This document shows, piece after piece, positions 3,646 to 32,000 of a stretch of 32,000 nucleotides of DNA (position 1 is the first letter of the stretch; each line of letters begins with the position of its first letter). The stretch covers positions 96,322 to 128,321 of the forward strand of contig NZ_JAQFIQ010000001.1 of NCBI RefSeq assembly GCF_029504745.1. The letters are read 5' to 3'. A program made the translations under genes and the position numbers. The notes under the pieces were generated by a model, which worked only from the letters and a program-made list of their open reading frames with translations, did not search any database and was not told the DNA's origin. This stretch comes from Breznakia sp. PF5-3 (lineage in GTDB: Bacteria > Bacillota_I > Bacilli_A > Erysipelotrichales > Erysipelotrichaceae).

Positions 3646-3885
3646 TTATTCTTCCACCTTTACTTCTTTAATACCATCAACTTCATCTTGAAGCATTGCT
3701 TCAAGACCAAATTTGATTGTGTCATCTAGTGCCAAACACCCTACACAAGCACCAATCATTCTTACATATACAATACCATCTTCGTATCGTAAAAACTCTA
3801 CATCTCCACCATCACGTTGAATATAAGGTCTTATCTTTTCAATGACGGCAATTATTTCATTATTTTTTTTCTCCATAGCTACCAT
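3646..3885 (-). CDS. NifU-like (Nfu-type) Fe-S cluster assembly protein
   Basis: 79-aa ORF with IRPYIQRDGGDVEF and the GACVGC CxxC motif of the NifU C-terminal domain. AAGGAG lies 6 nt upstream of the ATG on the minus strand. The hairpin aaggtgga...tccacctt (3634-3660) with a flanking A/T run overlaps the stop and can terminate transcription. Confidence 0.85.
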   Translation of the reverse strand: MVAMEKKNNEIIAVIEKIRPYIQRDGGDVEFLRYEDGIVYVRMIGACVGCLALDDTIKFGLEAMLQDEVDGIKEVKVEE

Positions 3886-3981
3886 TCAAACTCCTTAGGA
3901 TATATTATATCACTATAAATAAAAAATTATATAGAAAATGACCTAGATTTGTGAAAATAATAATTATTATAATGTTATCTG

Positions 3982-3990
3982 TGATATAAT
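3982..3990 (+). promoter_or_regulatory. candidate extended -10 promoter element (TGaTATAAT) for the S1-domain gene / pgi
   Basis: tgatataat at 3982-3990 lies 11 nt upstream of the AAGGAGG SD (4001-4007). I found no convincing -35, so this is tentative. Confidence 0.35.
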
Positions 3991-4014
3991 AAAAAACATG
4001 AAGGAGGTCTGTTC

Positions 4015-4377
4015 TTGTATCAAAATGGAGATATTGTTGAAGGTATTATTACAGGTATTCAACCTTATGGAGCCTTTGTAAAAATAGATGATCAACATAA
4101 TGGATTGCTGCATATATCGGAAATTTCAGATAGTTATATACACGATATTCATGAATATGTATCAATGAAAGAAAAAATTAAAGTTAAAATACTCGATGTT
4201 GGGACAGATGACCATCATTTTAAATTATCACTAAAAGCATTGCATAAAGATGCTGGTAGAAAACGGCGTTCACAACCTCATCGTTTATTACCTAAACAAG
4301 AGCTTGGATTTAAAACGTTAGAACTACATTTAGATAAGTGGATTAAGGAAGGAATGGATGGAGGTAACAATGATTAA
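4015..4377 (+). CDS. S1 RNA-binding domain protein (YugI/GSP13/CvfD-like)
   Basis: 120-aa ORF with a TTG start 7 nt after AAGGAGG. It has an S1 fold signature (GDIVEG.ITGIQPYGAFVKI....GLLHISEIS...I.D) and a basic C-terminal tail. Confidence 0.85.
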   Translation: MYQNGDIVEGIITGIQPYGAFVKIDDQHNGLLHISEISDSYIHDIHEYVSMKEKIKVKILDVGTDDHHFKLSLKALHKDAGRKRRSQPHRLLPKQELGFKTLELHLDKWIKEGMDGGNND

Positions 4378-5644
4378 ATTTGAAACAAAAAATGCTTTTT
4401 TACAAGAAGATATAACTTCTTATCAAGATGAGGTTACAAAACTTCATGATGCTTTAATGAACAAAACAGGGAAAGGAAATGACTTTCTTGGTTGGGTTGA
4501 TTGGTGCAACAATTATGATAAAGCAGAATTTGAAAGAGTAAAGCAAGCGGCATCATATATTAAAGAAAATTGTGATGTGTTCCTTGTGTGTGGAATCGGA
4601 GGATCTTATTTAGGAGCTCGTGCAGCGATTGAAATGATCAATGGATTATATGCTGATAAAAAGCCAGAAATTATTTTCTGTGGAAATACATTTTCGTCAA
4701 CATATACAAAACAAGTTTTAGATTATATTAAAGATAAAGATGTATGCTTGAATGTTATTTCTAAATCTGGTACTACAACAGAGACGGCATTAGCATTCCG
4801 ATTGTTCAAACAAGCAATTGAAGAAAAATATGGCAAGGAAGAAGCAAGTAAAAGAATTGTAGCAACGACAGATGGTGCAAAAGGTACTTTGTATGAATTA
4901 GCTAAAAAAGAAGGTTATGATATGTATGTGATCCCAGATGATATTGGTGGTCGCTTTAGTGTAATTACACCAGTAGGACTTTTACCAATTGCTGTTGCAG
5001 GTATTGATATTGATGAACTTATGAATGGGGTTACACAAGCGTATAATGACTTTAATACTGCAGATTTAACAAAAAACCCAGCATATGCTTATGCTGTTGC
5101 AAGACGTATTCTTGAAAAACAAGGAAAAAGTGCCGAAATGTTTGTTACTTATGATTTACAAACAACGATGCTTGCCGAATGGTGGAAACAATTATTTGGT
5201 GAATCAGAAGGGAAGAATGGCTGTGGACTTTTGCCTACAAGCGCGACATTCTCTACCGATTTACACTCTTTAGGACAATTTGTCCAAGATGGAAAGAAAT
5301 TGTTATTTGAAACGTTAGTTTTATTTGAAAAACCAACCGAAGATATTATCTTCCCTAATGATGATGATAATTTGGATTCAATGAATTATCTTGCAGGGAA
5401 AAATGTTGATTGGGTCAATAAAATGGCAATGAAAGGTACTTTGCAAGCGCATGTGGAAACAGGAAAAGTTCCAAACTTAGAAATTATTGTACCAGATATG
5501 AGTGCTTATTCATTTGGATATCTAGTATATTTCTTCTTTAGAGCTTGTGCTATGACTGTTTATTTAATTGATCAAAATCCGTTTGATCAACCAGGAGTAG
5601 AAGTATATAAGAAAAACATGTTTAAGCTATTAGGAAAAAACTAA
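4370..5644 (+). CDS. pgi: glucose-6-phosphate isomerase
   Basis: Firmicute-type short PGI carrying GIGGSYLGARA, ISKSGTTTET, IGGRFSV and QLFGESEGK. I chose the ATG at 4370 (GGAGG at 4360-4364, 5-nt spacer) over the ATG at 4358. The gene overlaps the preceding one by 8 nt. Confidence 0.9.
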   Translation: MIKFETKNAFLQEDITSYQDEVTKLHDALMNKTGKGNDFLGWVDWCNNYDKAEFERVKQAASYIKENCDVFLVCGIGGSYLGARAAIEMINGLYADKKPEIIFCGNTFSSTYTKQVLDYIKDKDVCLNVISKSGTTTETALAFRLFKQAIEEKYGKEEASKRIVATTDGAKGTLYELAKKEGYDMYVIPDDIGGRFSVITPVGLLPIAVAGIDIDELMNGVTQAYNDFNTADLTKNPAYAYAVARRILEKQGKSAEMFVTYDLQTTMLAEWWKQLFGESEGKNGCGLLPTSATFSTDLHSLGQFVQDGKKLLFETLVLFEKPTEDIIFPNDDDNLDSMNYLAGKNVDWVNKMAMKGTLQAHVETGKVPNLEIIVPDMSAYSFGYLVYFFFRACAMTVYLIDQNPFDQPGVEVYKKNMFKLLGKN

Positions 5645-5647
5645 TTT

Positions 5648-6100
5648 GTGAATACAAGGATTTTTGAAATAGAATGTTCCAATTGTAATCATACTTGGTT
5701 TGTAAAGACAGATACCATATTTCATGATCATATTCATAAACAGATTAAATTTGCATTTTATGATGGTTCATTTTTCAAAAGAAAGTGTAGCAATTGTGGG
5801 GAATTGATTGATTTTAAATGTCCATTGGTGTATTACTTTACAGACAAAAATATCTTAATTTGTCTTGGGTGTGAAGCCCATAATGAGCAAGCAAAAAGTT
5901 ACAATGTTTCTTCAATTGGTGAATTTGTTGAGAATTTGAAAATCATTGACTATGGTTGTACAATGGAAGAAATCATAGCGTTAAAAAAGAAATTAATAAA
6001 CTATGATAAATTAATATTTGATAGTTTTGCAGATAATTGTTATTTCTTTCAGACTAGAGATGGAATCATAGCGATTGAAAAAATAGTGAAAGTACGATGA
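5648..6100 (+). CDS. hypothetical zinc-ribbon (multi-CxxC) protein
   Basis: 150-aa ORF with a GTG start 3 nt after the pgi stop. It has three CxxC pairs (CSNC, CSNC, CLGC). I do not recognise a family. A good terminator follows. Confidence 0.5.
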   Translation: MNTRIFEIECSNCNHTWFVKTDTIFHDHIHKQIKFAFYDGSFFKRKCSNCGELIDFKCPLVYYFTDKNILICLGCEAHNEQAKSYNVSSIGEFVENLKIIDYGCTMEEIIALKKKLINYDKLIFDSFADNCYFFQTRDGIIAIEKIVKVR

Positions 6101-6537: not shown

Positions 6538-8787
6538 ATGAGTCAAAGAAATGAAACGCATATGCACGAACACAACCATGATGGATCGTGTTGCAATCAC
6601 ACAAGTCGTGTGGAAAAACAAGAGGTGAATGAAAATCATCACCATGACCATGATCATTCTCACTGCAGTTGTGAAAGCCAAGCAGAAGAGGATGATGTAG
6701 GCGATATACAGGCCAAATATAAATATAAGATAGTTGGTCTTGATTGTGCTAATTGTGCAATGAAAGTAGAGGATACCCTCAATAAGCAAAATTTTATTAA
6801 GGATGCAAAAATAAATTTTTCTAGCGGTTTGCTATATGTAAATCCTAGTAAGCAAGCAAATGATGATACTTTACAAGAGAAGATTGCAAAGATTGTAGAT
6901 GATGTTGAACCAGGTGTTAAAATTGTTGATACAGAAAGTGATGTTGATACAAGTAATAAGGGTGAATTGATTCATCTACTAGTAGGTATTGGATTGTTTT
7001 TGATTGCTCTTTATTTTGAATCGAGGATTAACTTTTCACCAATTTTCTTATATATGATTCCATATTTATTCATTGGCTATAAAGTATTATGGAAATCTGT
7101 CCGCAATATTATGAAAGGTGAGATTTTCGATGAAAACTTTTTAATGTCTATCGCTACCATTGGAGCCTTTGTTGTTGGGTCTTATGAAGAAGCAGTGGAA
7201 GTTATGTTGTTTTATAGCATTGGTGAACTTTTACAATCTTATGCAGTTAATAAATCAAGACGTTCTATATCTGATTTAATGGATATCAAGAGTGAATATG
7301 CTAATTTGATTAAGAGTGATGGTAGTGAAGTGAAAGTGGATCCAAAATCTTTAAAAATAAATGATATGATTAGTATCAAGGCAGGAGAAAAGGTTCCTGT
7401 TGATGGTGTTATTGTGAATGGAGCATCATCTTTAGATATTTCTGCTCTTAGTGGTGAAGCTGCTTTAAAAGATGTTGGTGCCGATGATGAAATTTTAGCA
7501 GGATCCATTAATACAAATGGTCTTCTAAAAGTAAAAGTTACAAAAATCTTTGAAGATTCTACCGTGGCGAAAATATTGGAACTTGTTGAAAATGCAGCGA
7601 ATAAAAAATCTCCAATTGAAAATTTTATTACTAAATTTGCTAAGATTTATACTCCAATTGTTGTATTTTTAGCATTGGCTATCGTTCTTATTCCATCCTT
7701 AATCTATGGATTTGATGAGTTCAATACATGGTTATATCGTGGATGTACATTCTTAGTTATATCTTGTCCATGTGCACTTGTTGTATCTGTACCATTAGGT
7801 GTATTTGCTGGTATTGGTAGCGCAAGTAAAATTGGTGCACTTGTGAAAGGCGGGAATTATTTAGAATTATTGAATGATGTAAATTGTATTATCTTTGATA
7901 AAACTGGAACAATTACAAAAGGGAATTTTGAAGTCAGTGATTGGAGTGGTGATTCAAACATCTTAGAGTATGCAGCATATGCTGAAAGTTATTCTAATCA
8001 TCCGATTGCAAAGAGTATTGTTTCAAAATATGGTAAAAAAATTGATTTTAAACGTTTGGAAAACTATCAGGAACTTGCTGGTTTTGGAGTAAGTGTAGAA
8101 TTTGATGGAAAAGCTTTAATCGCTGGTAACGAAAAACTAATGAAGCAAGAAAAAATTGAATATACTGAAACGGATGCACTTGGCACAGTTATATATATTG
8201 CATATGACGGACTTTTTGTAGGGTATATAATAATTAGTGATGAAATTAAAAAATCTAGTAGAGAGGCTTTAAATGAACTCAGAGAGCTTGGTATTACCAA
8301 TACTGTTATGTTAACTGGTGATCGTGAAGCAATTGCTAATAATATTGCAAATGATGTAGGAATTCAAAGTGTTCATGCACAATTGTTACCACAAGATAAA
8401 GTTTCTATTTTAGAAAACTACTTGTCTAATAAAGATAATACTGTAGCCTTTGTTGGTGATGGCATTAATGATGCTCCATCGCTTATGCGTGCAGATATAG
8501 GTATATCTATGGGAGGTATTGGTAGTGATGTAGCAATTGAAGCAAGTGATCTTGTTCTTATGACAGATGATTTGTTACTTATTCCCAAAACGATTAAAAT
8601 TAGTCGTAAGACTAAAAAAATCGTTATGCAAAACATAATATTCTCACTTGCAGTTAAATTGATTGTTTTAATTCTATCAGCAATTGGTGTTGCAAATATG
8701 AGGATGGGAGTCTTTGCAGATGTTGGTGTTACTTTGATAGCAATTATAAACTCCATGCGTGCTTTAATTGCATATAAGCATGTATAA
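6538..8787 (+). CDS. heavy-metal translocating P1B-type ATPase (Cd/Zn/Co type, CadA/ZntA-like)
   Basis: 749-aa ORF. It has a His/Cys-rich N-terminus and an HMA domain with GLDCANCAMKVE. It also has the CPC membrane motif (ISCPCALV), the phosphorylation site FDKTGTIT, SNHPIA (HP motif) and the hinge GDGINDAP. Confidence 0.93.
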   Translation: MSQRNETHMHEHNHDGSCCNHTSRVEKQEVNENHHHDHDHSHCSCESQAEEDDVGDIQAKYKYKIVGLDCANCAMKVEDTLNKQNFIKDAKINFSSGLLYVNPSKQANDDTLQEKIAKIVDDVEPGVKIVDTESDVDTSNKGELIHLLVGIGLFLIALYFESRINFSPIFLYMIPYLFIGYKVLWKSVRNIMKGEIFDENFLMSIATIGAFVVGSYEEAVEVMLFYSIGELLQSYAVNKSRRSISDLMDIKSEYANLIKSDGSEVKVDPKSLKINDMISIKAGEKVPVDGVIVNGASSLDISALSGEAALKDVGADDEILAGSINTNGLLKVKVTKIFEDSTVAKILELVENAANKKSPIENFITKFAKIYTPIVVFLALAIVLIPSLIYGFDEFNTWLYRGCTFLVISCPCALVVSVPLGVFAGIGSASKIGALVKGGNYLELLNDVNCIIFDKTGTITKGNFEVSDWSGDSNILEYAAYAESYSNHPIAKSIVSKYGKKIDFKRLENYQELAGFGVSVEFDGKALIAGNEKLMKQEKIEYTETDALGTVIYIAYDGLFVGYIIISDEIKKSSREALNELRELGITNTVMLTGDREAIANNIANDVGIQSVHAQLLPQDKVSILENYLSNKDNTVAFVGDGINDAPSLMRADIGISMGGIGSDVAIEASDLVLMTDDLLLIPKTIKISRKTKKIVMQNIIFSLAVKLIVLILSAIGVANMRMGVFADVGVTLIAIINSMRALIAYKHV

Positions 8788-23813: not shown

Positions 23814-23890
23814 AAGATGATGTGATAATTCCGGTAAATCAAATTATTGATATTTCAGAATTATAAAAGCATATAAAAGGCGGTGTGATT

Positions 23891-24442
23891 ATGGGTGAAT
23901 ATGTAAAAAAGAAAAAATACATGGTATTCCAAAGTGTAGAATCACTTCAGCAAGCTGTTAATGTTCTAAATGATGCGGCAGCTGCGGTAAATGATAAATC
24001 ACGTACAATTAGAGAAAGCGCAATCCCTGAAGTGCTTGCAGGAGTATTAGGTGCTGGTATTGGCGGAGTAGGTTCTTTTGCTGCACTTTACGGGTTGGGT
24101 TCTGTTGTAGGATTATCAGCAGCAGGTATAACATCAGGACTTGCTGCAGCAGGTAGCATTGTTAGCGGCGGTATGGTTGCAGGTGTATTCGTACTTGCAG
24201 CACCTGTAGCAGCCCTTGCAGCAGCAGGAGTAGGATTTGCTACACACTTAAAAAATAAACAGTTAAGACAAGAAAAAGAACGTTTGTATAAAGAAGCTTT
24301 GAAAAAGCATGAAGCAATTATTCAAGCTTTGAAATCTGAGGTTGATGCTGATAAAGAGCGTCTCGATTACTTACAGAGCTTAAATATTCTTCTTACGCAA
24401 ATAATAAAAGACTTAAAGAAGGATTTGGGTAAGGCGGCATGA
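23891..24442 (+). CDS. hypothetical Gly/Ala-rich (glycine-zipper) membrane protein with C-terminal coiled coil
   Basis: 183 aa from the ATG at 23891 (GTG at 23885 is also possible). Three regions are visible. There is an N-terminal helix. There are about 75 aa of G/A/V/S-rich hydrophobic sequence (GVLGAGIGGVGSFAALYGLGSVVGLSAAGITSGLAAAGSIVSGGMVAGVFVLAAPVAALAAAGVGFA). The C-terminus is a charged heptad-like helix (KNKQLRQEKERLYKEALKKHEAIIQALKSEVDADKERL). AAGGCGG serves as SD. Confidence 0.75.
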   Translation: MGEYVKKKKYMVFQSVESLQQAVNVLNDAAAAVNDKSRTIRESAIPEVLAGVLGAGIGGVGSFAALYGLGSVVGLSAAGITSGLAAAGSIVSGGMVAGVFVLAAPVAALAAAGVGFATHLKNKQLRQEKERLYKEALKKHEAIIQALKSEVDADKERLDYLQSLNILLTQIIKDLKKDLGKAA

Positions 24443-25800
24443 GCAAATTCAAGTACACTGAAACAGAACAACAATTTAATAATGCTTTGAATCATCAGTC
24501 AAAAGAATTAAGTTTAATTAAAAGACCTGATATGACATCAGTAGAAGTTTGCATTTCTGAGAGCGAAGAACTACTGAAGGAGTTAGGTATCTCTACAGAG
24601 AGTATGCCTGAAGTGGTTAACCCTACATTTCAAAGGGGGATGGTAGTTCCTACGTGGGAGGAATTGTGCATTCAAGCTGAACAGGAAGTTGGTTCAACAA
24701 CAGATTTAGAATCCCTTTTTACAGATGAAGAATTGAGAATGAATCAAGTTGCTCTACGTGCTTTGAATATCGATTACAATAATATTCATAAGCTTGATAA
24801 AATAGATATTACTATTTGTGCAACTGCAGGTATTTTGGGCGTTGTTGTTGATATTCTACTAATAGGAATTCCGAAAAAAACACCAGAAGGTTTAAAAGGT
24901 GGGCCACTTTCCAATTATGTAAGAGACTGGTTTAATCAAAGATTTCCAGAAGTAGAAATGGAAAAACTCTCCAATTCAAAAGTAAGCAAAGTATCATTTG
25001 ATGCTCAGGATAATCGCCATACTACAGAGTATGTTACCGGTTTATCTGCTTACTATCATAGATTGTTATCGCTTGGGCATGACCCTATCCTTGGATTGAT
25101 ATTTGGAGTTTATGACATTTTGACTGATAAAATGACGACGATTGATAAAACTGGCAAAATGGTATCTCAGGTTATGGAAAACTATGCAGACCGAAAAGAA
25201 AGTGATATTTTTGCTGCAATTGCTAAGCAGATTATTCATTTCAAATCTGACATTACAACGTCTATGGGGCTACCGGCTCCTTTGATGGCATTATTTAACT
25301 TACTCCAGTTTGGTAGTATTGGAGAAGAAGAACAGATAATTGCTGAAATTGTGCAGGGAATGTATTACGAAGGTTATGATTTCATTCATTTTTGTAGTAT
25401 GTCAATTCCGACAATGATAATTGAAGTAATCATCAGATTAGGCTATGGCATTAAGAGGATTAAAGAAGGTAATTCTATAAAGGACTCGATTCCTTTTTCA
25501 TTAAATCGAGAAAAACATCCAAAGCTGAGCACTATGTTATTCATTGGACATTCTGCGGCTACTGCTGTAAATGCTGGAAAGGTTTACTTCACCAAAAATC
25601 CTATGGCAATAAACTATCCTCAATGGATAACATTTGCTAAATATTTATACAAACAATTGAAATGGGTGTTGTTAGAGAAACAAGAACTTAAAGATGCCTA
25701 CGTTAGAGGTATCATTGCTGAAGAATTGAATGAAATATATGCTGAAATAGATAATAGCTTCACGGAAATGTCGGAAGAGTATATAGTTGTCTTTAATTAA
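24439..25800 (+). CDS. hypothetical membrane-associated protein, translationally coupled to the upstream gene
   Basis: 453-aa ORF. The ATGA start/stop overlap is at 24439-24442. The same AAGGCGG SD motif lies 1 nt upstream. Hydrophobic segments include ITICATAGILGVVVDILLIGIP, IHFCSMSIPTMIIEVIIRLGYGI and LSTMLFIGHSAATAVNAG. The conserved-looking stretch YHRLLSLGHDPILGLIFGVYD stands out. I recognise no family. Confidence 0.8.
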   Translation: MSKFKYTETEQQFNNALNHQSKELSLIKRPDMTSVEVCISESEELLKELGISTESMPEVVNPTFQRGMVVPTWEELCIQAEQEVGSTTDLESLFTDEELRMNQVALRALNIDYNNIHKLDKIDITICATAGILGVVVDILLIGIPKKTPEGLKGGPLSNYVRDWFNQRFPEVEMEKLSNSKVSKVSFDAQDNRHTTEYVTGLSAYYHRLLSLGHDPILGLIFGVYDILTDKMTTIDKTGKMVSQVMENYADRKESDIFAAIAKQIIHFKSDITTSMGLPAPLMALFNLLQFGSIGEEEQIIAEIVQGMYYEGYDFIHFCSMSIPTMIIEVIIRLGYGIKRIKEGNSIKDSIPFSLNREKHPKLSTMLFIGHSAATAVNAGKVYFTKNPMAINYPQWITFAKYLYKQLKWVLLEKQELKDAYVRGIIAEELNEIYAEIDNSFTEMSEEYIVVFN

Positions 25801-25806
25801 GAATCG

Positions 25807-25837
25807 CCCTCTCAACCATTATGGCTGGGAGGGTTTT
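25807..25837 (+). terminator. Rho-independent terminator after the 453-aa gene
   Basis: ccctctcaacca (25807-25818) pairs with tggctgggaggg (25822-25833): a 12-bp stem with two G-U pairs and a 3-nt loop. TTTT follows. Confidence 0.7.
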
Positions 25838-25849
25838 ATGCGTCTATGC

Positions 25850-26530
25850 TTATCTTTCAACATCGACCTTGAATCCGAATTTCAATTCAACGGTACAGTG
25901 AGTAGGCCAGATTATAATTTGCTTGAGCCAGCATTTTACAAGCTCCTGCTGAAGCTCCATAAGCTTCTCATCAATGCCATCCGTGGTGATTGCAGTAGAA
26001 GCTCTGATGACCGATGCGATATTTTGATTTATCTCTAAGAAGCTCATTCTAGACGATGAGTACAATTTCCTGCAGGTCAATCTCGTTGATGATTCTTGCG
26101 AGGCACTCAAGGCCATGGGTTCTAACTTGCTGATGCAGCGCCAGACGATGGATTTGCAGCCACGGTTGTTCCAATGAATTCTTCTGAACATTTCACCACA
26201 ATCACCACAAATAATAATCTGTGAGAAGCAGTGCTTGCAGCTGTAGCTTCGTTTCTTTCCATTAGCACTGGTCTTAACCACTCGCCTGTATACCAATTCT
26301 TCCTGCCACGCATGTAAATTTCTCTAGGAATAATCGCTTCGCGGTTTCCTTCAACATAATATTATGGAACGATGCCACTGTTCTTAACTCTGGTCTTGTT
26401 CGGTTTTTGGACTTTTTGTTGTAAAGTAAGAACCAAACATATCCACGGTTAAAATGTCGTAGGGTTGAGTTTAGAAGATGAAAACGGTAGGGAGTGGATA
26501 TAGGATTGTTAAAAGAAATTAATTGAGTAC
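25850..26530 (-). pseudogene. large serine recombinase remnant (C-terminal recombinase / zinc beta-ribbon part only; multiple frameshifts and stops; catalytic N-terminus absent)
   Basis: Recombinase-like peptide is spread over all three minus-strand frames:
- LQQKVQKPNKTRVKNSGIVP*YYVEGNREAIIPREIYM, with a stop at 26362-26364
- a frameshift near 26305-26311, leading into QEELVYRR...KKRSYSCKHCFSQIIICGDCGEMFRRIHWNNRGCKSIVWRCISKLE
- a frameshift near 26115-26122, leading into HGLECLARIINEIDLQEIVLIV*, with a stop at 26049-26051
- a further shift into FLEINQNIASVI...IDEKLMELQQELVK...HCTVELKFGFKVDVER
The pattern matches what I recall of TndX/Ccr-like large serine recombinases. The upper boundary (26530) is approximate. 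Confidence 0.8.
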
Positions 26531-26890
26531 GGAGTATCGAGAGGAAGTTTGCAAATAAGAGAAATAAAGAACAGAAAACCAATTGTATCTGGTACATTAT
26601 AAGAAGTGAATAATCCGCAAAAGTATTATACAGGCAGTAAAATGATTATGTCTAGTCTCCAGATACGGCTTCAATCTAGGTGTTCCTGCAACAGTTCATT
26701 GTGACGGAGAAAACTAATCATAACAGTGAATGATATTAATAATTTGTAGAGGATGGTGTTGTATACAATTAAAAACCTAGGATGATAATTTTATTATTTA
26801 AATATAATCAAATATCATCAAACTGATGCAAATATAATAAAAATGAGTATAATAAAGAGAAGCAGTTTAATTATACAGAGAGGTGATGTT

Positions 26891-27040
26891 ATGCAAAATA
26901 GCAACGAAGATATATGGATTAATATTAATGAAGCTTCTGAATATTTAGGTGTAAAAACTGTTACTTTACGTGGAGTGATAAAGAATGAGAATTCTGTTCC
27001 AGCATATAAAGTTGGTAAGCAGTGGAAATTCAAACGATAG
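26891..27040 (+). CDS. excisionase-family (MerR-like) helix-turn-helix DNA-binding protein
   Basis: 49 aa from the ATG at 26891 (GAGAGGTGA SD upstream). The sequence WININEASEYLGVKTVTLRGVIKNENSVPAYKVGKQWKFKR fits the HTH_17 / Xis-type pattern (L...EAA.yLGVs..TL......G.iPa.KvGk.WrF.r). The longer 65-aa ORF from 26843 is not favoured. Confidence 0.75.
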   Translation: MQNSNEDIWININEASEYLGVKTVTLRGVIKNENSVPAYKVGKQWKFKR

Positions 27041-27077
27041 AAATAGACAAATGAGTCAAAAGTGGAGAAAGCGAATT

Positions 27078-27239
27078 ATGAAACAAAAAAAGATTAAGCA
27101 TTTATCATTGTTTGCCGGGTACGGTGGTATAAATTTAGGTTTTCAATGGGCAGGTTTCAAGACAGTTGCAGGAGTAGAAATCAAACAATTTGCTTGTGAT
27201 ATTCTTAGAAAAAAATGGAGAGATAAATCATGGCACTAA
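27078..27239 (+). pseudogene. DNA (cytosine-5) methyltransferase, 5' stub only (motif I region), truncated
   Basis: MKQKKIKHLSLFAGYGGINLGFQWAGFKTVAGVEIKQFACD matches the N-terminus of C5-MTases: motif I F.G.GG and the following acidic E of motif II. The frame stops after 53 codons. I found no PCQ or ENV catalytic motif downstream in any frame. The stop overlaps the start of the DUF262 gene. Confidence 0.7.
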
Positions 27240-28531
27240 TTCAAGAAGAATTAAAAATAATTAAATTAAAAGACTTACTTAATATAAATTTAGCCTTGCC
27301 TTCATATCAGCGTCCATATAGTTGGAGTGCGAAGTCAAGTAATACCTTATTTATTGATACATATGAAGCCTTTAAGGATGGAATAAACGAATACCGACTT
27401 GGATCGGTAATCTTACAGAAAGAATGTTCAGAAAAATATAATATTGTTGATGGACAACAAAGACTTACTACCTTAACAATTCTACTTTTTTGCTTAGGCG
27501 ATGACAATCAAAGATTGTTGGAAGAAAAATACAGCAAACTATCTAATGATGTTATTGTTACAAATTTTGGTGTTCTTTCTAAAAGAACTAACGAATTAAC
27601 TGATGATGAGCGTAAAAAATATAAAGATTATCTTTTGAATCAATGCACCACGGTTCAAATTGTTACAGATAGTGAACAAGAGGCGTTTCAGTTCTTCGAT
27701 TCACAAAATTCTCGTGGAAAAGAGTTAGCACCACATGATTTGTTGAAATCATACCATTTACGGGAAATGAATAACGAGGATGAAAAACAAAAAGTTAAAA
27801 TTATAAATAACTGGGAAAATATGAATCAAGATGATCTAGATGATTTATTTAAAAACTATTTGTACCCACTAACTCAATGGTATAAGAAAAAAAAGGGGTT
27901 GGGTTATTCTTCAAGCAAAATTGATTCTTTCAAAGGAATTAAAGGAACAAATATCTACAACTATGCAATTTATCATAAAGCTAGTAGTCTGTATGTAGAA
28001 CAACTCAATACTAATGGTAGTAGTGAATTACTTGCCTCAAAATTTTTGAATCAATTCCAATTGACACAACCATTGATAGCTGGAAAGCGATTCTTTAATT
28101 ATACACTCCATTACGGGAAATTATTAGAAAAGATTCAAAAACAAATTAACCGCTTTTATAACCATGAGCAAGTTCCAAGTAAGCGTTCTGGCGATATTTA
28201 TATTATGCAACTTTATGAATGTTCATTATTATTCTTTGCAGATAGATTTGGTCTTGAGAGTTTAACCCAATCCGTGATGCAACAACTTTATTCATGGAGT
28301 TATTCATTGAGAATGGCAATGAATGCAGTGTATCCGCAGACCATCAATAAATATGCGCAAGGTCAGCATGAACGTGCAAACTATGGAATCGATATGTTTG
28401 CTGAAATCAGCGAAATGGCTGATCCAGAAGAATTGAAGTTGCTGGTGCTTACAAAGCCAGACATTGATGACAATAATAAGGAAAAATACAAAGCAATTTA
28501 TACATTGCTTTGTAAATGGAATGGATGGTAG
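27230..28531 (+). CDS. DUF262 (GmrS-like, ParB/Srx-fold NTPase) protein lacking a nuclease domain
   Basis: 433-aa ORF with the DUF262 motifs LPSYQRPYSW, VDGQQRLTTLTILL and FQFFDSQNSRGKELAPHDLLK. The C-terminal half is helical. I see no H..(N/H) His-Me motif. GGAGAG SD lies upstream. Confidence 0.85.
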   Translation: MALIQEELKIIKLKDLLNINLALPSYQRPYSWSAKSSNTLFIDTYEAFKDGINEYRLGSVILQKECSEKYNIVDGQQRLTTLTILLFCLGDDNQRLLEEKYSKLSNDVIVTNFGVLSKRTNELTDDERKKYKDYLLNQCTTVQIVTDSEQEAFQFFDSQNSRGKELAPHDLLKSYHLREMNNEDEKQKVKIINNWENMNQDDLDDLFKNYLYPLTQWYKKKKGLGYSSSKIDSFKGIKGTNIYNYAIYHKASSLYVEQLNTNGSSELLASKFLNQFQLTQPLIAGKRFFNYTLHYGKLLEKIQKQINRFYNHEQVPSKRSGDIYIMQLYECSLLFFADRFGLESLTQSVMQQLYSWSYSLRMAMNAVYPQTINKYAQGQHERANYGIDMFAEISEMADPEELKLLVLTKPDIDDNNKEKYKAIYTLLCKWNGW

Positions 28532-28534
28532 AAG

Positions 28535-30322
28535 ATGACTGAAGATTTAAAAATAATACCTGTATCAGATGTTTTTGCTAATATTAATTACCTAGTGCCA
28601 ATTTACCAACGTAACTATGCATGGAGAGAAACGCAAATAGAACAATTAATTGAAGATGTTGAAAGTTCCATTGACGATTCTAATAAAAACTACTTCTTAG
28701 GGAACTTGATTGTTAATCAAACGGATAACAATGTTTACGAAGTGATTGATGGACAGCAGCGATTAACGACTTTATATCTTCTTGAAAAGTATTTAGAGGT
28801 TGAATTTGCGAAAGAGGCATTGCGATTTGAGGCACGCGAAAAATCAAATCGTACCCTTTCCAATATCAGTAATAGTAATAACCAAGAATTAATTGAAGAA
28901 TTATTATCACCAGAAATTCTGAATGGTTTTCAAATCGTTGATAACTACTTCAAGAATAAAAATATCGACAAAAACAGATTTGCTCAAAAGTTAAAACAGG
29001 TTTTTCTTATTCGTATACAAGTTCCGCAGAATATTGATTTAAACCATTATTTTGAAATTATGAATACGCGTGGAGAACAATTAGAACTTCACGAAATCGC
29101 TAAAGCTAAGTTGTTAGAAGCACTTGAAAGCGATCAAGATAGAAATATAGCAGCACAGATTTGGGAAAAATGTTCTGATATGAATTCCTATGTTCAGATG
29201 AATTTTGATGTGAGTGTGCGAAGGAGTATCTTTACCGAAAACTGGAGCAGTCTTATTCCATCAATTACAAATTTTGACTCTATAAAAAGTAAAATTTCTA
29301 CAGACAATAAATCTACAGACAAAAAGTGTTTAATTGATATCTTGAAAGAAAATAAAATGGTTTATGTGTCAGACATGCAATCTGAAGATGAGAATGAACG
29401 TTTTGAATCGACTATTTCATTTCCAAACTTTTTATTGCAAGTCAATTCGGTTCTGAGAAATATTGGAGAAGAGGATGCAAACCTTGATGATAAACACTTT
29501 CTTAATAATTTATCTTGGGCATGGTCATCACCTGAAAATGCGAAAAATTTCTTGTTCCATATATTGAAATGTCGAGTGTTATTTGACAAGTATGTTTTAA
29601 AACGTGAGTTTGCTAGAGATTACAAAGAAACGGGCAAATGGTCCCTACAGCGTTTAGAAAAATACCGGGATAGCAAGAAAAATAGTGATAAACCAAAATA
29701 CGTTGGTACATTTGGCGATGAAGGTAATGAAAATAAGAAGTTAAGAACTCTTCAATCTTGTTTGCGTATTACTTATACATCACCAAAAACTATGCACTGG
29801 ATTACCGTTACTTTATCTAGCTTGTTAGAGAATGAGGAAGCTGATATTATTACTGTGCTAGAAAACTACTGTAAAAAGAAAGTCGTTGATTCCGATTACC
29901 AAAACCGAAACGGTTTTGAATTTGAACGCATTGTATTTTCATATCTTGATTATTTAATTTATCGAGATGGATATTCGTATGATGGAGAAGAAATAATATC
30001 ACCAATGCAAGAGGATTGGCAATTCCAGTTTAGAAGTTCCATTGAACATTTCCAACCTCAGCATCCAGTTGAAGGAGATTCTTGGGAACAGGGCGACTTG
30101 AACGAATTCGGTAATTTAGCGTTAATAACGGTTTCGGGGAACTCTAAGTTTTCTAACTTGCCACCTGCTGGAAAAATTAATTCATATCCGAGTGTCATCA
30201 GTCAAAGTCTGAAATTAAAAATCATGGAAAAAATGACGAGACTTGATGATGGAAAATGGACAGAAGAAAAGTCAAGTAGACATAAAAAAGAAATGTTCAG
30301 CATTTTGAAAAATAAAGGGTAG
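28535..30322 (+). CDS. GmrSD-family type IV (modification-dependent) restriction endonuclease-like protein (DUF262 + DUF1524)
   Basis: 595-aa ORF. The N-terminal DUF262 motifs are VPIYQRNYAW, IDGQQRLTTLYLL and FEIMNTRGEQLELHEIAKAKLL. The C-terminal DUF1524 His-Me finger-like motif is SIEHFQPQHP ... FGNLALITVSGNSKFSN. The gene starts 3 nt after the preceding stop. Confidence 0.88.
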   Translation: MTEDLKIIPVSDVFANINYLVPIYQRNYAWRETQIEQLIEDVESSIDDSNKNYFLGNLIVNQTDNNVYEVIDGQQRLTTLYLLEKYLEVEFAKEALRFEAREKSNRTLSNISNSNNQELIEELLSPEILNGFQIVDNYFKNKNIDKNRFAQKLKQVFLIRIQVPQNIDLNHYFEIMNTRGEQLELHEIAKAKLLEALESDQDRNIAAQIWEKCSDMNSYVQMNFDVSVRRSIFTENWSSLIPSITNFDSIKSKISTDNKSTDKKCLIDILKENKMVYVSDMQSEDENERFESTISFPNFLLQVNSVLRNIGEEDANLDDKHFLNNLSWAWSSPENAKNFLFHILKCRVLFDKYVLKREFARDYKETGKWSLQRLEKYRDSKKNSDKPKYVGTFGDEGNENKKLRTLQSCLRITYTSPKTMHWITVTLSSLLENEEADIITVLENYCKKKVVDSDYQNRNGFEFERIVFSYLDYLIYRDGYSYDGEEIISPMQEDWQFQFRSSIEHFQPQHPVEGDSWEQGDLNEFGNLALITVSGNSKFSNLPPAGKINSYPSVISQSLKLKIMEKMTRLDDGKWTEEKSSRHKKEMFSILKNKG

Positions 30323-30380
30323 AACAATACTTCAATACACAACGATTTATATATAGTAATAATAATCCTATTACAGGATC

Positions 30381-30415
30381 AAAAAACCTAAAGTTACTTG
30401 ATTTTAGGTTTTTTT
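30381..30415 (+). terminator. Rho-independent terminator after the DUF262-DUF1524 gene
   Basis: aaaacctaaa (30382-30391) pairs with tttaggtttt (30402-30411) across a 10-nt loop. A T-run follows. Confidence 0.8.
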
Positions 30416-30755
30416 AGTATTTACATCTATATAAACTACTGCTTGTTAACTTAGTTCTTCTTTTTTATATTCTAATTTCAAATAAAATTATAAGTGAAAT
30501 ATATAAAAAAACAAAAAATGAATATAATATTTATGTTACTATATAACTAAATATAAAAAGACAAACTATTAGATGTCAATAGCTAAATAAAATTAACTAT
30601 AATCTATCAAAAAAGTGCAATTGTCTTGCTTCAGAGGTGAATCCTCTATAAAAATCTTGTTGCTAGTGCTTGAAATTGGTCACTAAAAACAACTATTTGA
30701 TTATTACAATTTCAATAGTCTAATTTACTGGGACTGTAGAGAATAATAGTAATAT

Positions 30756-32000
30756 CTATTCATCATATTTTGTATAAATGAAGTCAAATATTTCACCGTT
30801 TATATCAGAATATGAATAGATTTGTTTTCTAGTATTTCTAGGGATTTCAGTTGAAATGTTCGTGAAGAACGTTGTTTGGGTTTCTTCATTTAGCAGCATT
30901 AACTGCTCATAAGAGATTACAAACTTAGTACCTGTTTTAAGTACTGAATAAACATATCTGGCAACCTTGTTTGCAATAGCTGTGACTGCTAACTTATGAC
31001 GTTTCTTGTTTCCGTTCTTGATTTTCTCAAAGTGAGCTTTAAGAACAGGATTATGACGGCGAGCAAATTCGGCAATCATATAGATAGCATGACGTAAATA
31101 ACGCGAACCACGTTTAGAGATTTTACCATGAGTATCTACAGAGGAACCAGACTTGGAGTTACAAGGACATAAACCAATGTAACTGACAAGTTTATCAGCA
31201 CAACTAAACAGTTTAATATCACTAATTTCAGAAAGAATAGCAGAAGCAGTGATATTACCACAACCAGGCATTGATTTTAATAAATCAAATGCTTCAAATG
31301 ATGAAGCAAGTACCTTCAATTCTTTTTCCAAAGAACGAAGAATTTCTTTAAGACGAAGTACTTCATCAACATTATCAAGGATAACGCGTTTCGAAGCGAG
31401 AGATATCTCAAAAGTGTTTAATGTATCTGAACACAAACGAAAGAGTTCATCAATCTTATCCATGCTTACACGCTTCTTACTAGCAGTAAAAGCAATGTTG
31501 TATACTTCCTCTTTGGAAGAATGCATGATATCATAAGTTGTAGGATATATTGATAAGATTGCAAGGAACACAGCAGATTTGGGTTCAAATACATACTGTA
31601 GTTCAGGAAAGTGTTTGTCACATCTACCAATGAGGCGATTAACTTCTTGAGTGTATGATTTCTTGCGTTGACAGTAACGGTGGAACGTATCTTTCAAATC
31701 AGTATGTCCTTTTATATTGGAATTAGGAGTTTTATTAACAAATAAAACATCATTCTCATTCGCAATAATAGAAGCAATAGATTGAGCATCAAGAGGATCA
31801 CTTTTACTCTTATTATGAGTGTCACACCAACGTTTAACATAAGTGGTGTTAAGTAACTTAACATGCTCATTATCAAGAGTATTAGAACATAGCCAATGAA
31901 AGAGGTTATCCATATAGTTACCAGTAACTTCCATCGCAAAAGTTATATTGGTACAATTAGAATTTGCAAAGGATCTAACAAGGTCAATGAAAGCATTGAC
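30756..32000 (-). CDS. IS110 family transposase / recombinase (N-terminus outside window)
   Basis: The minus-strand frame stays open from 31934 to base 32000 (VNAFIDLVRSFANSNCTNITFAMEVTGNYMDNL...). The true start is therefore beyond the window edge. DEDD-domain pieces are present (AMEVTGNY; KSDPLDAQSIA). So is the C-terminal Transposase_20 signature (MPGCGNITASAILSEI.DI..F....KLVSYIGLCP...SGSS......ISKRGSRYLRHAIY). Confidence 0.9.
   Translation of the reverse strand, partial: VNAFIDLVRSFANSNCTNITFAMEVTGNYMDNLFHWLCSNTLDNEHVKLLNTTYVKRWCDTHNKSKSDPLDAQSIASIIANENDVLFVNKTPNSNIKGHTDLKDTFHRYCQRKKSYTQEVNRLIGRCDKHFPELQYVFEPKSAVFLAILSIYPTTYDIMHSSKEEVYNIAFTASKKRVSMDKIDELFRLCSDTLNTFEISLASKRVILDNVDEVLRLKEILRSLEKELKVLASSFEAFDLLKSMPGCGNITASAILSEISDIKLFSCADKLVSYIGLCPCNSKSGSSVDTHGKISKRGSRYLRHAIYMIAEFARRHNPVLKAHFEKIKNGNKKRHKLAVTAIANKVARYVYSVLKTGTKFVISYEQLMLLNEETQTTFFTNISTEIPRNTRKQIYSYSDINGEIFDFIYTKYDE
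30756..32000 (-). mobile_element. IS110-family insertion sequence (partial; ends not determinable from this window)
   Basis: The call rests on the transposase above. IS110-family elements lack classical terminal inverted repeats, so I cannot place the 3' end within the AT-rich 30416-30755 spacer. Confidence 0.6.

Follow-up and report, generated by a model that had tools for sequence, protein, structure and literature searches.

A truncated C5 methylase gene joined to a TgvAB-like DUF262 cassette beside rumA in Breznakia sp. PF5-3, a probable case of defence system replacement

Some restriction-modification (R-M) systems, such as LlaJI (PMC1459862) and PcaRCI (PMC8989522), pair a C5 methylase with McrBC-like restriction subunits. 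TgvAB, encoded on VPI-2 of Vibrio cholerae, is a two-protein type IV restriction system of the GmrSD family (PMC11411939, PMC11014532) that restricts phages with glucosylated hydroxymethylcytosine, not 5mC; neither TgvAB nor GmrSD acts on unmodified DNA, the substrate of both being glucosyl-hydroxymethylcytosine (PMC11411939). In the window analysed here (the whole stretch of 32,000 nucleotides from Breznakia sp. PF5-3), relatives of both kinds of system meet at one point: a C5 methylase gene was very probably cut after about 44 codons, with a mobile two-gene cassette replacing the rest of an older R-M system. Turnover of defence genes at hotspots beside core genes leaves gene remnants, and the locus shares with such cases a variable cargo downstream of one core gene (rumA) as well as a decayed recombinase, an IS element, a toxin pseudogene and the truncated methylase. 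It differs in that both parents of the junction were identified and the crossover was mapped to 11 nt, which, to our knowledge, is not usually possible for such remnants. The specific junction is new, while the event is of a known kind, ordinary defence-island turnover, and it opens no new mechanism; it would provide a clean, nucleotide-resolved case of one defence system replacing another at a chromosomal hotspot, with a single event removing the methylase and its restriction partners together.

The ancestral locus, read from three intact comparators (L007, L018 and L019), resembles LlaJI and PcaRCI in that a single operon holds a C5 methylase and, after it, genes for a McrB-like AAA_5 ATPase and for a McrC-family protein. 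By analogy, we regard it as a system of their style, in which the C5 methylase would protect the host from the McrBC-like restriction subunits. However, LlaJI has two methylases and the ancestor one, and the ancestor adds to the described systems a small HTH_17 leader gene and, between the methylase and the McrB-like gene, a protein annotated as BpuJI_N. The window is not itself a member of this group, with 44 methylase codons left and the McrB- and McrC-like neighbours absent. As in TgvAB, the first gene of the window cassette codes for a DUF262 protein without nuclease and the second for a protein with DUF262 and a DUF1524 His-Me nuclease, the two being adjacent and co-oriented. TgvAB, however, is embedded in a type I R-M operon, and the window cassette is joined to what is left of a dead methylase gene. 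Domain architecture and gene order thus suggest a TgvAB-like type IV system.

Remnants of the older operon and their intact counterparts

The stub is an ORF of 53 codons on the + strand (ATG at 27078 to TAA at 27237-27239), whose product matches the C5 methylase profile PF00145 at positions 2-44 of 324 (E 1.2e-9, 38.5 bits, cut-off 22), bearing out the initial annotation, which had read it as beginning like a C5 methylase. Motif I (AdoMet-binding, FxGxG) is present as LFAGYGG at residues 11-17. Past profile position 44 there is no PF00145 signal in any frame, so the Pro-Cys of motif IV (PCQ) is missing; motif VI (ENV), the target-recognition domain and motifs IX-X are missing as well (53 aa vs about 320 aa or more at full length). 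A six-frame PF00145 search of the whole assembly returned only the stub and one unrelated intact gene on contig 11, and tblastn with the intact L007 methylase (388 aa, spanning PF00145 positions 2-324) matched residues 1-49 at the stub. Neither search finds a methylase body, in line with the earlier report of no PCQ or ENV downstream, and the continuation that a corrected frameshift might have restored is found in no downstream frame. The stub is 84% identical to the L007 methylase in amino acids and about 94% in nucleotides, and it retains its ATG and the RBS GGAGAAAG. Judged by these alignments, codons 1 to about 43-46 correspond to the N-terminus of a C5 cytosine methylase, and the last 7-10 codons are the cassette leader, its RBS and its first codons read out of frame. 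The 3' end overlaps the DUF262 gene (start 27230) by 10 nt and the stop codon lies 7 nt past the DUF262 ATG; on re-reading, the coordinates first given for the HTH gene, the stub and the DUF262 gene, and the overlap, proved exact.

A stand-alone small protein conserved in many genomes would have been another reading of the stub, but among 5.8 billion proteins no relative of similar length was found except the stub itself. An exhaustive HMMER scan of 1.84 billion representatives gave generic methylase N-termini (57% identity or less) and two fragments on short contigs (702 nt and 1.9 kb). The candidate P0007 is a 53-aa fragment with methylase similarity up to EIKQ; it was not counted as a second stub, as it comes from a single 702-nt contig. 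The DNA of the HTH gene and stub had no match in phages and only chance matches in the genomes of 60 relatives; against plasmids, the cassette alone was matched, from its ATG onward. The stub is in all likelihood a non-functional remnant of an R-M operon, and annotators should not count this ORF as a methylase.

Before the stub lies a gene of 49 codons (ATG at 26891 to TAG at 27038-27040, + strand) of the HTH_17 (excisionase/MerR-like) family, matching PF12728 with E 2e-6 and 28.3 bits (cut-off 27) over profile positions 1-40 of 51, the C-terminus being frameshifted away. Alignment with L007 places a 1-nt deletion after 27038, missed in the initial annotation, that makes the TAG and costs the protein 14 C-terminal residues. 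The intact form (P0002, 63 aa, 90% identical) overlaps the methylase start by ATGA, an overlap that the deletion has broken in the window. The window protein also carries W29V at a conserved position, and an exact look-up of it found no entry on record. The earlier suggestion that the locus keeps its regulator thus holds for the gene, which is retained, but not for its full length.

HTH relatives numbered 283 in a metagenome scan and 5 in a viral-contig scan. We took 41 non-redundant genes directly following HTH homologues (85 HTH-homologue loci): 20 are C5 methylases, 14 Eco57I/N6_Mtase-type, 2 N4/N6, 1 an EcoRI methylase and 1 Dam-like, and the remaining 3 match MatE, BrxA and HhH-GPD. DUF262/GmrSD domains occur in none of the 41 (0/41). 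Since DNA methylases follow the HTH gene in about 38 (at least 34) of the 41 loci, it is a methylase-linked leader gene and not the excisionase of the neighbouring dead recombinase, and the arrangement in the window is a secondary derivative. Like the controller (C) proteins of R-M systems, it is a small HTH gene directly before a methylase and translationally coupled to it; however, classical C proteins are Xre-type HTH proteins, whereas this one has the HTH_17 fold and is a putative regulator, read from gene position.

The family precedes methyltransferases of at least five unrelated families (C5, Eco57I/N6, N4/N6, EcoRI and Dam-like; L035-L119) and has the look of a portable leader or controller module for methylases. 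One methylase of 896 aa that follows HTH homologues has shortened copies; these were considered as truncations and rejected, being due to an IS110 insertion, to small frameshift indels in low-coverage contigs or to adapter sequence. In L082, an IS110-family transposase (3720-4895) interrupts the 896-aa N6 methylase after the HTH gene, and in L086 the contig end (5585-5692) translates like a sequencing adapter, an assembly artefact.

The 63-aa HTH protein P0002 is encoded on 19 public contigs, of which L007 is the fullest. Its gene order is a rumA-type methyltransferase, a serine recombinase, a 114-aa ORF, SymE, the 63-aa HTH gene, the 388-aa C5 methylase and then three genes, the first coding for a 286-aa protein recorded as BpuJI_N, the second for a McrB-like AAA_5 ATPase and the third for a McrC-family protein. 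A search with the back-translated stub found the same four-gene module in Veillonella montpellierensis DSM 17217 and in a Clostridiaceae MAG (methylase followed by proteins of 287-290, 326-331 and 433 aa). The search for intact HTH plus C5 methylase loci proposed with the initial annotation was thus successful, and alignment to these loci mapped the breakpoint. In all three intact loci and in the window, the module follows the rumA-type gene closely, on its 3' side. By blastn, window 26432-27216 and L007 7509-8330 are 83% identical in nucleotides (about 94% over the HTH gene and stub), whereas the rumA proteins of the two are only 39% identical; the segment therefore belongs to a mobile element targeting this site. 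The ancestor was, with high probability, a mobile island beside rumA carrying SymE, the HTH gene, the C5 methylase and the BpuJI_N-type, McrB-like and McrC-like genes.

The DUF262 cassette and its junction with the methylase

The first gene of the cassette (27230..28531, + strand, 433 aa, intact) codes for a TgvA-like protein with PF03235 (DUF262, GmrSD_N) at residues 16-176 and PF25202 (DUF7834) at 188-420; it has the motifs YQRPY and DGQQRLTT, and a profile search found no PF07510 nuclease domain in it. More than 6500 homologues are known, the best with 89% amino acid identity. After a gap of 3 nt follows the co-oriented TgvB/GmrSD-like gene (28535..30322, + strand, 595 aa, intact and of the same length as its relatives), with PF03235 at residues 11-194 and PF07510 (DUF1524, the GmrSD_C His-Me nuclease) at 459-588. 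The dN/dS is 0.10-0.15 for the TgvA-like and 0.15 for the TgvB-like gene, vs 0.33 for the HTH gene plus stub (weak evidence, as this value comes from just 17 substitutions), so the cassette is intact and under purifying selection. Best matches in PADLOC (version 2.0, which predates TgvAB) were partial (HEC-06, Orf5 and SspE), and a PDB sequence search with the cassette proteins gave a remote match to SspE only. The cassette, of 3.1 kb, is widespread as a free-standing operon in many bacterial orders and stands in unrelated contexts in the other loci examined. In two of these (L020 and L025) it lies directly downstream of guaA with about 90 nt of similar upstream sequence, perhaps one inherited insertion, making the 3' side of guaA another core-gene-linked site of the cassette. 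A short tandem duplication is found in the cassette leader of L025 and L026.

Cassette copies from three unrelated contexts (L020, L023 and L024) are 86-88% identical in nucleotides to the window, from 27206-27210 up to 30324-30331, the right end of the homology lying 2-9 nt past the stop codon. From the other side, blastn aligns window 26432-27227 with L007 7509-8340, real identity stopping at the tract CTTAGAAAAAAAT (27204-27216); past it the window reads GGAGAGATAAATCATG and L007 reads CATCCAGATATAAAAG, the usual HPDIK continuation of the methylase. In multiple alignments both parents carry an A-run here, CTTAAAAAAAAT in the methylase and AATA(G)AAAAAnnTGAGGAG in the cassette leader, and because of this we place the crossover within the tract TAGAAAAAAAT at 27206..27216, an interval of 11 nt with a microhomology of roughly 7-9 nt. 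The RBS GGAGAG (27217..27222, + strand) was imported with the cassette, its relatives having GAGGAG or GAGGGG at the same distance from the ATG. The initial annotation, which saw methylase similarity fade at about 27200 and proposed a cassette replacement that kept the 5' flank, was right on the first point and is supported on the second: the breakpoint is slightly further on, at 27206-27216, and the intact comparators and the independent copies of the cassette (L020, L023, L024 and others) meet within these 11 nt.

The replacement and its alternative explanations

Using the L007 proteins as tblastn queries against the assembly (97.9% complete), we found the HTH gene, methylase residues 1-49 and the SymE remnant, and no homologue of the methylase body or of the BpuJI_N-type, McrB-like and McrC-like proteins; the sole other methylase match (33% over 115 residues) is the unrelated methylase of contig 11. 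From this absence we infer a loss of at least 4.2 kb and a replacement at the microhomology. Most likely, a single illegitimate recombination event at a short A-rich microhomology joined the A-run in methylase codons 44-46 to that of the cassette leader just upstream of the cassette RBS. Such a join would have cost the locus 4.2 kb or more, with the methylase body and the three restriction genes, and the cassette its own -10 region. With methylase and restriction genes gone in one step, there would have been no self-killing (post-segregational killing) of the kind that follows the loss of a methylase alone. The order of events may also have been different, with the R-M system dead first and the cassette arriving later. 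Moreover, the IS110 element or a larger imported fragment may have taken part, as the contig ends inside a multi-copy IS110 and the right-hand end of the event can be read only up to the IS.

At the usual position, the cassette has now lost its own promoter. In seven independent cassette contexts (L020, L023, L024, L025, L027, L029 and L032, with 229-1093 nt of upstream intergenic DNA) a -10-like hexamer (TAAAAT, TATAAT, GAAAAT or GTGAAT; xAxAAT) is found about 35 nt before the ATG. The window keeps only 14-24 nt of the leader and so lacks this element, in whose register the methylase-derived part has TGTGATATT. Between the HTH gene and the cassette, no terminator is predicted on the + strand, and a promoter scan (30 sites vs 23.7 expected) is uninformative in AT-rich DNA. 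The old HTH/methylase promoter, or else a fortuitous TGTGATATT element inside the stub, most likely drives transcription of the cassette, and the locus thus offers a small case in which promoter capture by mobile defence genes can be tested. More tentatively, the dead 5' end may have been co-opted as an expression platform, contributing the HTH/methylase promoter and possibly sensing by the truncated HTH protein and tuning by stub translation; if true, a modification-dependent system would now be run by a control module that was made for a modification-based one.

We consider it unlikely that the stub itself is kept for a function, either as a uORF that couples or tunes translation of the cassette or, with the HTH gene, as a captured promoter and regulator. 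The ATG and GGAGAAAG RBS are still there, the stop codon falls 7 nt past the DUF262 ATG, the cassette has lost its -10 region, and the HTH-stub segment has about 94% identity to L007, in contrast to the SymE segment upstream, where decay has gone much further. However, the cassette has its own RBS at normal spacing, the HTH protein lacks its C-terminus and has the W29V change, the dN/dS of 0.33 indicates no special conservation, and the 9 extra open codons past the junction are expected by chance. A function of the stub would in any case be compatible with replacement of the R-M system by the cassette and does not exclude it.

Conflict between a cytosine methylase and the incoming modification-dependent nuclease, put forward in the initial annotation, would mean that the swap was selected and that the methylase had to go. 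Methyl-specific McrBC does kill cells that gain a methylase (PMC2614495), a Dcm/McrBC-type R-M system and a methyl-dependent HNH nuclease conflict in Pectobacterium (PMC8989522), and the methylase was deleted exactly where the cassette arrives. We nevertheless regard this as quite improbable, given that contig 11 of the same genome retains a C5 methylase of 365 aa, intact and with both PCQ and ENV, together with restriction genes of the LlaJI type and, 6 kb away, a third GmrSD-family protein, and that the closest relatives of the cassette (89% amino acid identity) have an intact HTH_26-C5 methylase and an Eco47II-type nuclease at a distance of about 740 nt. TgvAB and GmrSD, in addition, target glucosyl-hydroxymethylcytosine, neither 5mC nor unmodified DNA (PMC11411939). 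A motif-specific conflict between methylase and cassette may exist, but nothing here calls for one. The second defence cluster on contig 11 (29746-39159) consists of the C5 methylase, a 675-aa AAA_5 protein, a 414-aa RE_LlaJI-family protein and then a 682-aa GmrSD-DUF4357 protein; the first three look like a LlaJI-like R-M system unrelated to the L007 subunits.

Still less probable is a conserved landing pad for repeated exchange of defence cassettes at the HTH gene and methylase 5' end, although the 3' flank of rumA varies among relatives and small HTH homologues, as a portable module, precede many methylase families. The earlier suggestion that the stub is a recombination anchor is not supported, in view of its lack of any relative of similar length in 5.8 billion proteins and of a junction that is a plain A-run microhomology and no defined site; the HMMER scan gave only the generic N-termini and the two fragments on contigs of 702 nt and 1.9 kb. 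Nor did the proposed comparison of cargo at the junction yield any alternative, among the 10 of 19 L007-type contigs listed (all those long enough retain the full methylase) or among the 85 HTH-homologue loci, DUF262/GmrSD genes following the HTH gene in 0/41 non-redundant cases and the apparent truncations of the 896-aa methylase having the other causes given above (IS110 insertion, frameshifts in low-coverage contigs or adapter). Least credible of all is a false truncation by a frameshift or a chimeric contig. The assembly is a draft of 96 contigs, and this one ends 4.8 kb further on; however, identical 49-aa and 53-aa products are recorded from 4 contigs in public collections, the methylase signal is absent downstream in every frame, the cassette is continuous and intact from the junction onward, and three separate lesions (SymE, HTH gene and methylase) all indicate decay.

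Flanks of the island

The flank retained upstream of the junction is decaying, with a SymE pseudogene in addition to the frameshifted HTH gene. The SymE-type toxin pseudogene (26555..26870, + strand) has ATA in place of the ATG, several in-frame stops and deletions of 12, 14 and 3 nt relative to L007; the intact L007 gene matches PF08845 (E 8.5e-13), and tblastn aligns it to the window remnant at 49% identity. Further upstream, a profile match and translation identify the C-terminal remnant of a serine recombinase (25850-26313, - strand). Between these two lies one copy, by blastn, of an island-edge sequence of about 100 nt (26413..26512). In L007 this sequence occurs twice (5704-5804 and about 7490-7590), as a direct repeat around the serine recombinase and the 114-aa ORF in the manner of att sites; no second copy was found in the window or the genome.

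Downstream, a spacer of 225 nt (30332..30556) separates the end of the cassette from an IS110-family insertion sequence. The spacer holds an 11-bp A/T-rich hairpin followed by a T-run (30382-30415) that looks like a terminator, and has no match in any fetched locus or in plasmids. The IS110 element (30557..32000, - strand; PF02371 and PF01548, transposase 30756-31934 and beyond) runs off the contig end. Its 3' terminal sequence of about 100 nt is found at five other contig ends, so the element has several copies, at which the assembly breaks. With 30323-32000 as the query, neither tblastx nor blastn found anything but the IS end repeats in the fetched loci, the plasmids and the genome. The end at 30557-30675 has at least 6 near-identical copies (ends of C22, C5, C67, C11 and C14) and 76%-identical ones on C72, C31 and C82, and is conserved beside a C82 transposase that is only 38% identical. 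This non-coding end of about 100 nt could be a guide RNA region (bridge/seek-type); it has no Rfam match, and Rfam gave none across 25500-32000 at E up to 1.

Other defence genes are found on the opposite side of the dead recombinase. At 23885-25800 of the window, two overlapping genes form a Bunzi-like system by their PADLOC matches (BnzA, E 2e-10; BnzB, E 3e-62), and the 289-aa ORF in front of them weakly resembles PtuB (E 9e-5). The 3' flanks of rumA in three same-genus genomes (L130-L132), from which the HTH gene and stub are absent, all differ from one another, consistent with an integration hotspot; one holds core-like genes, another a methylase and AAA-protein cluster with phage-like genes, and another miscellaneous small genes.
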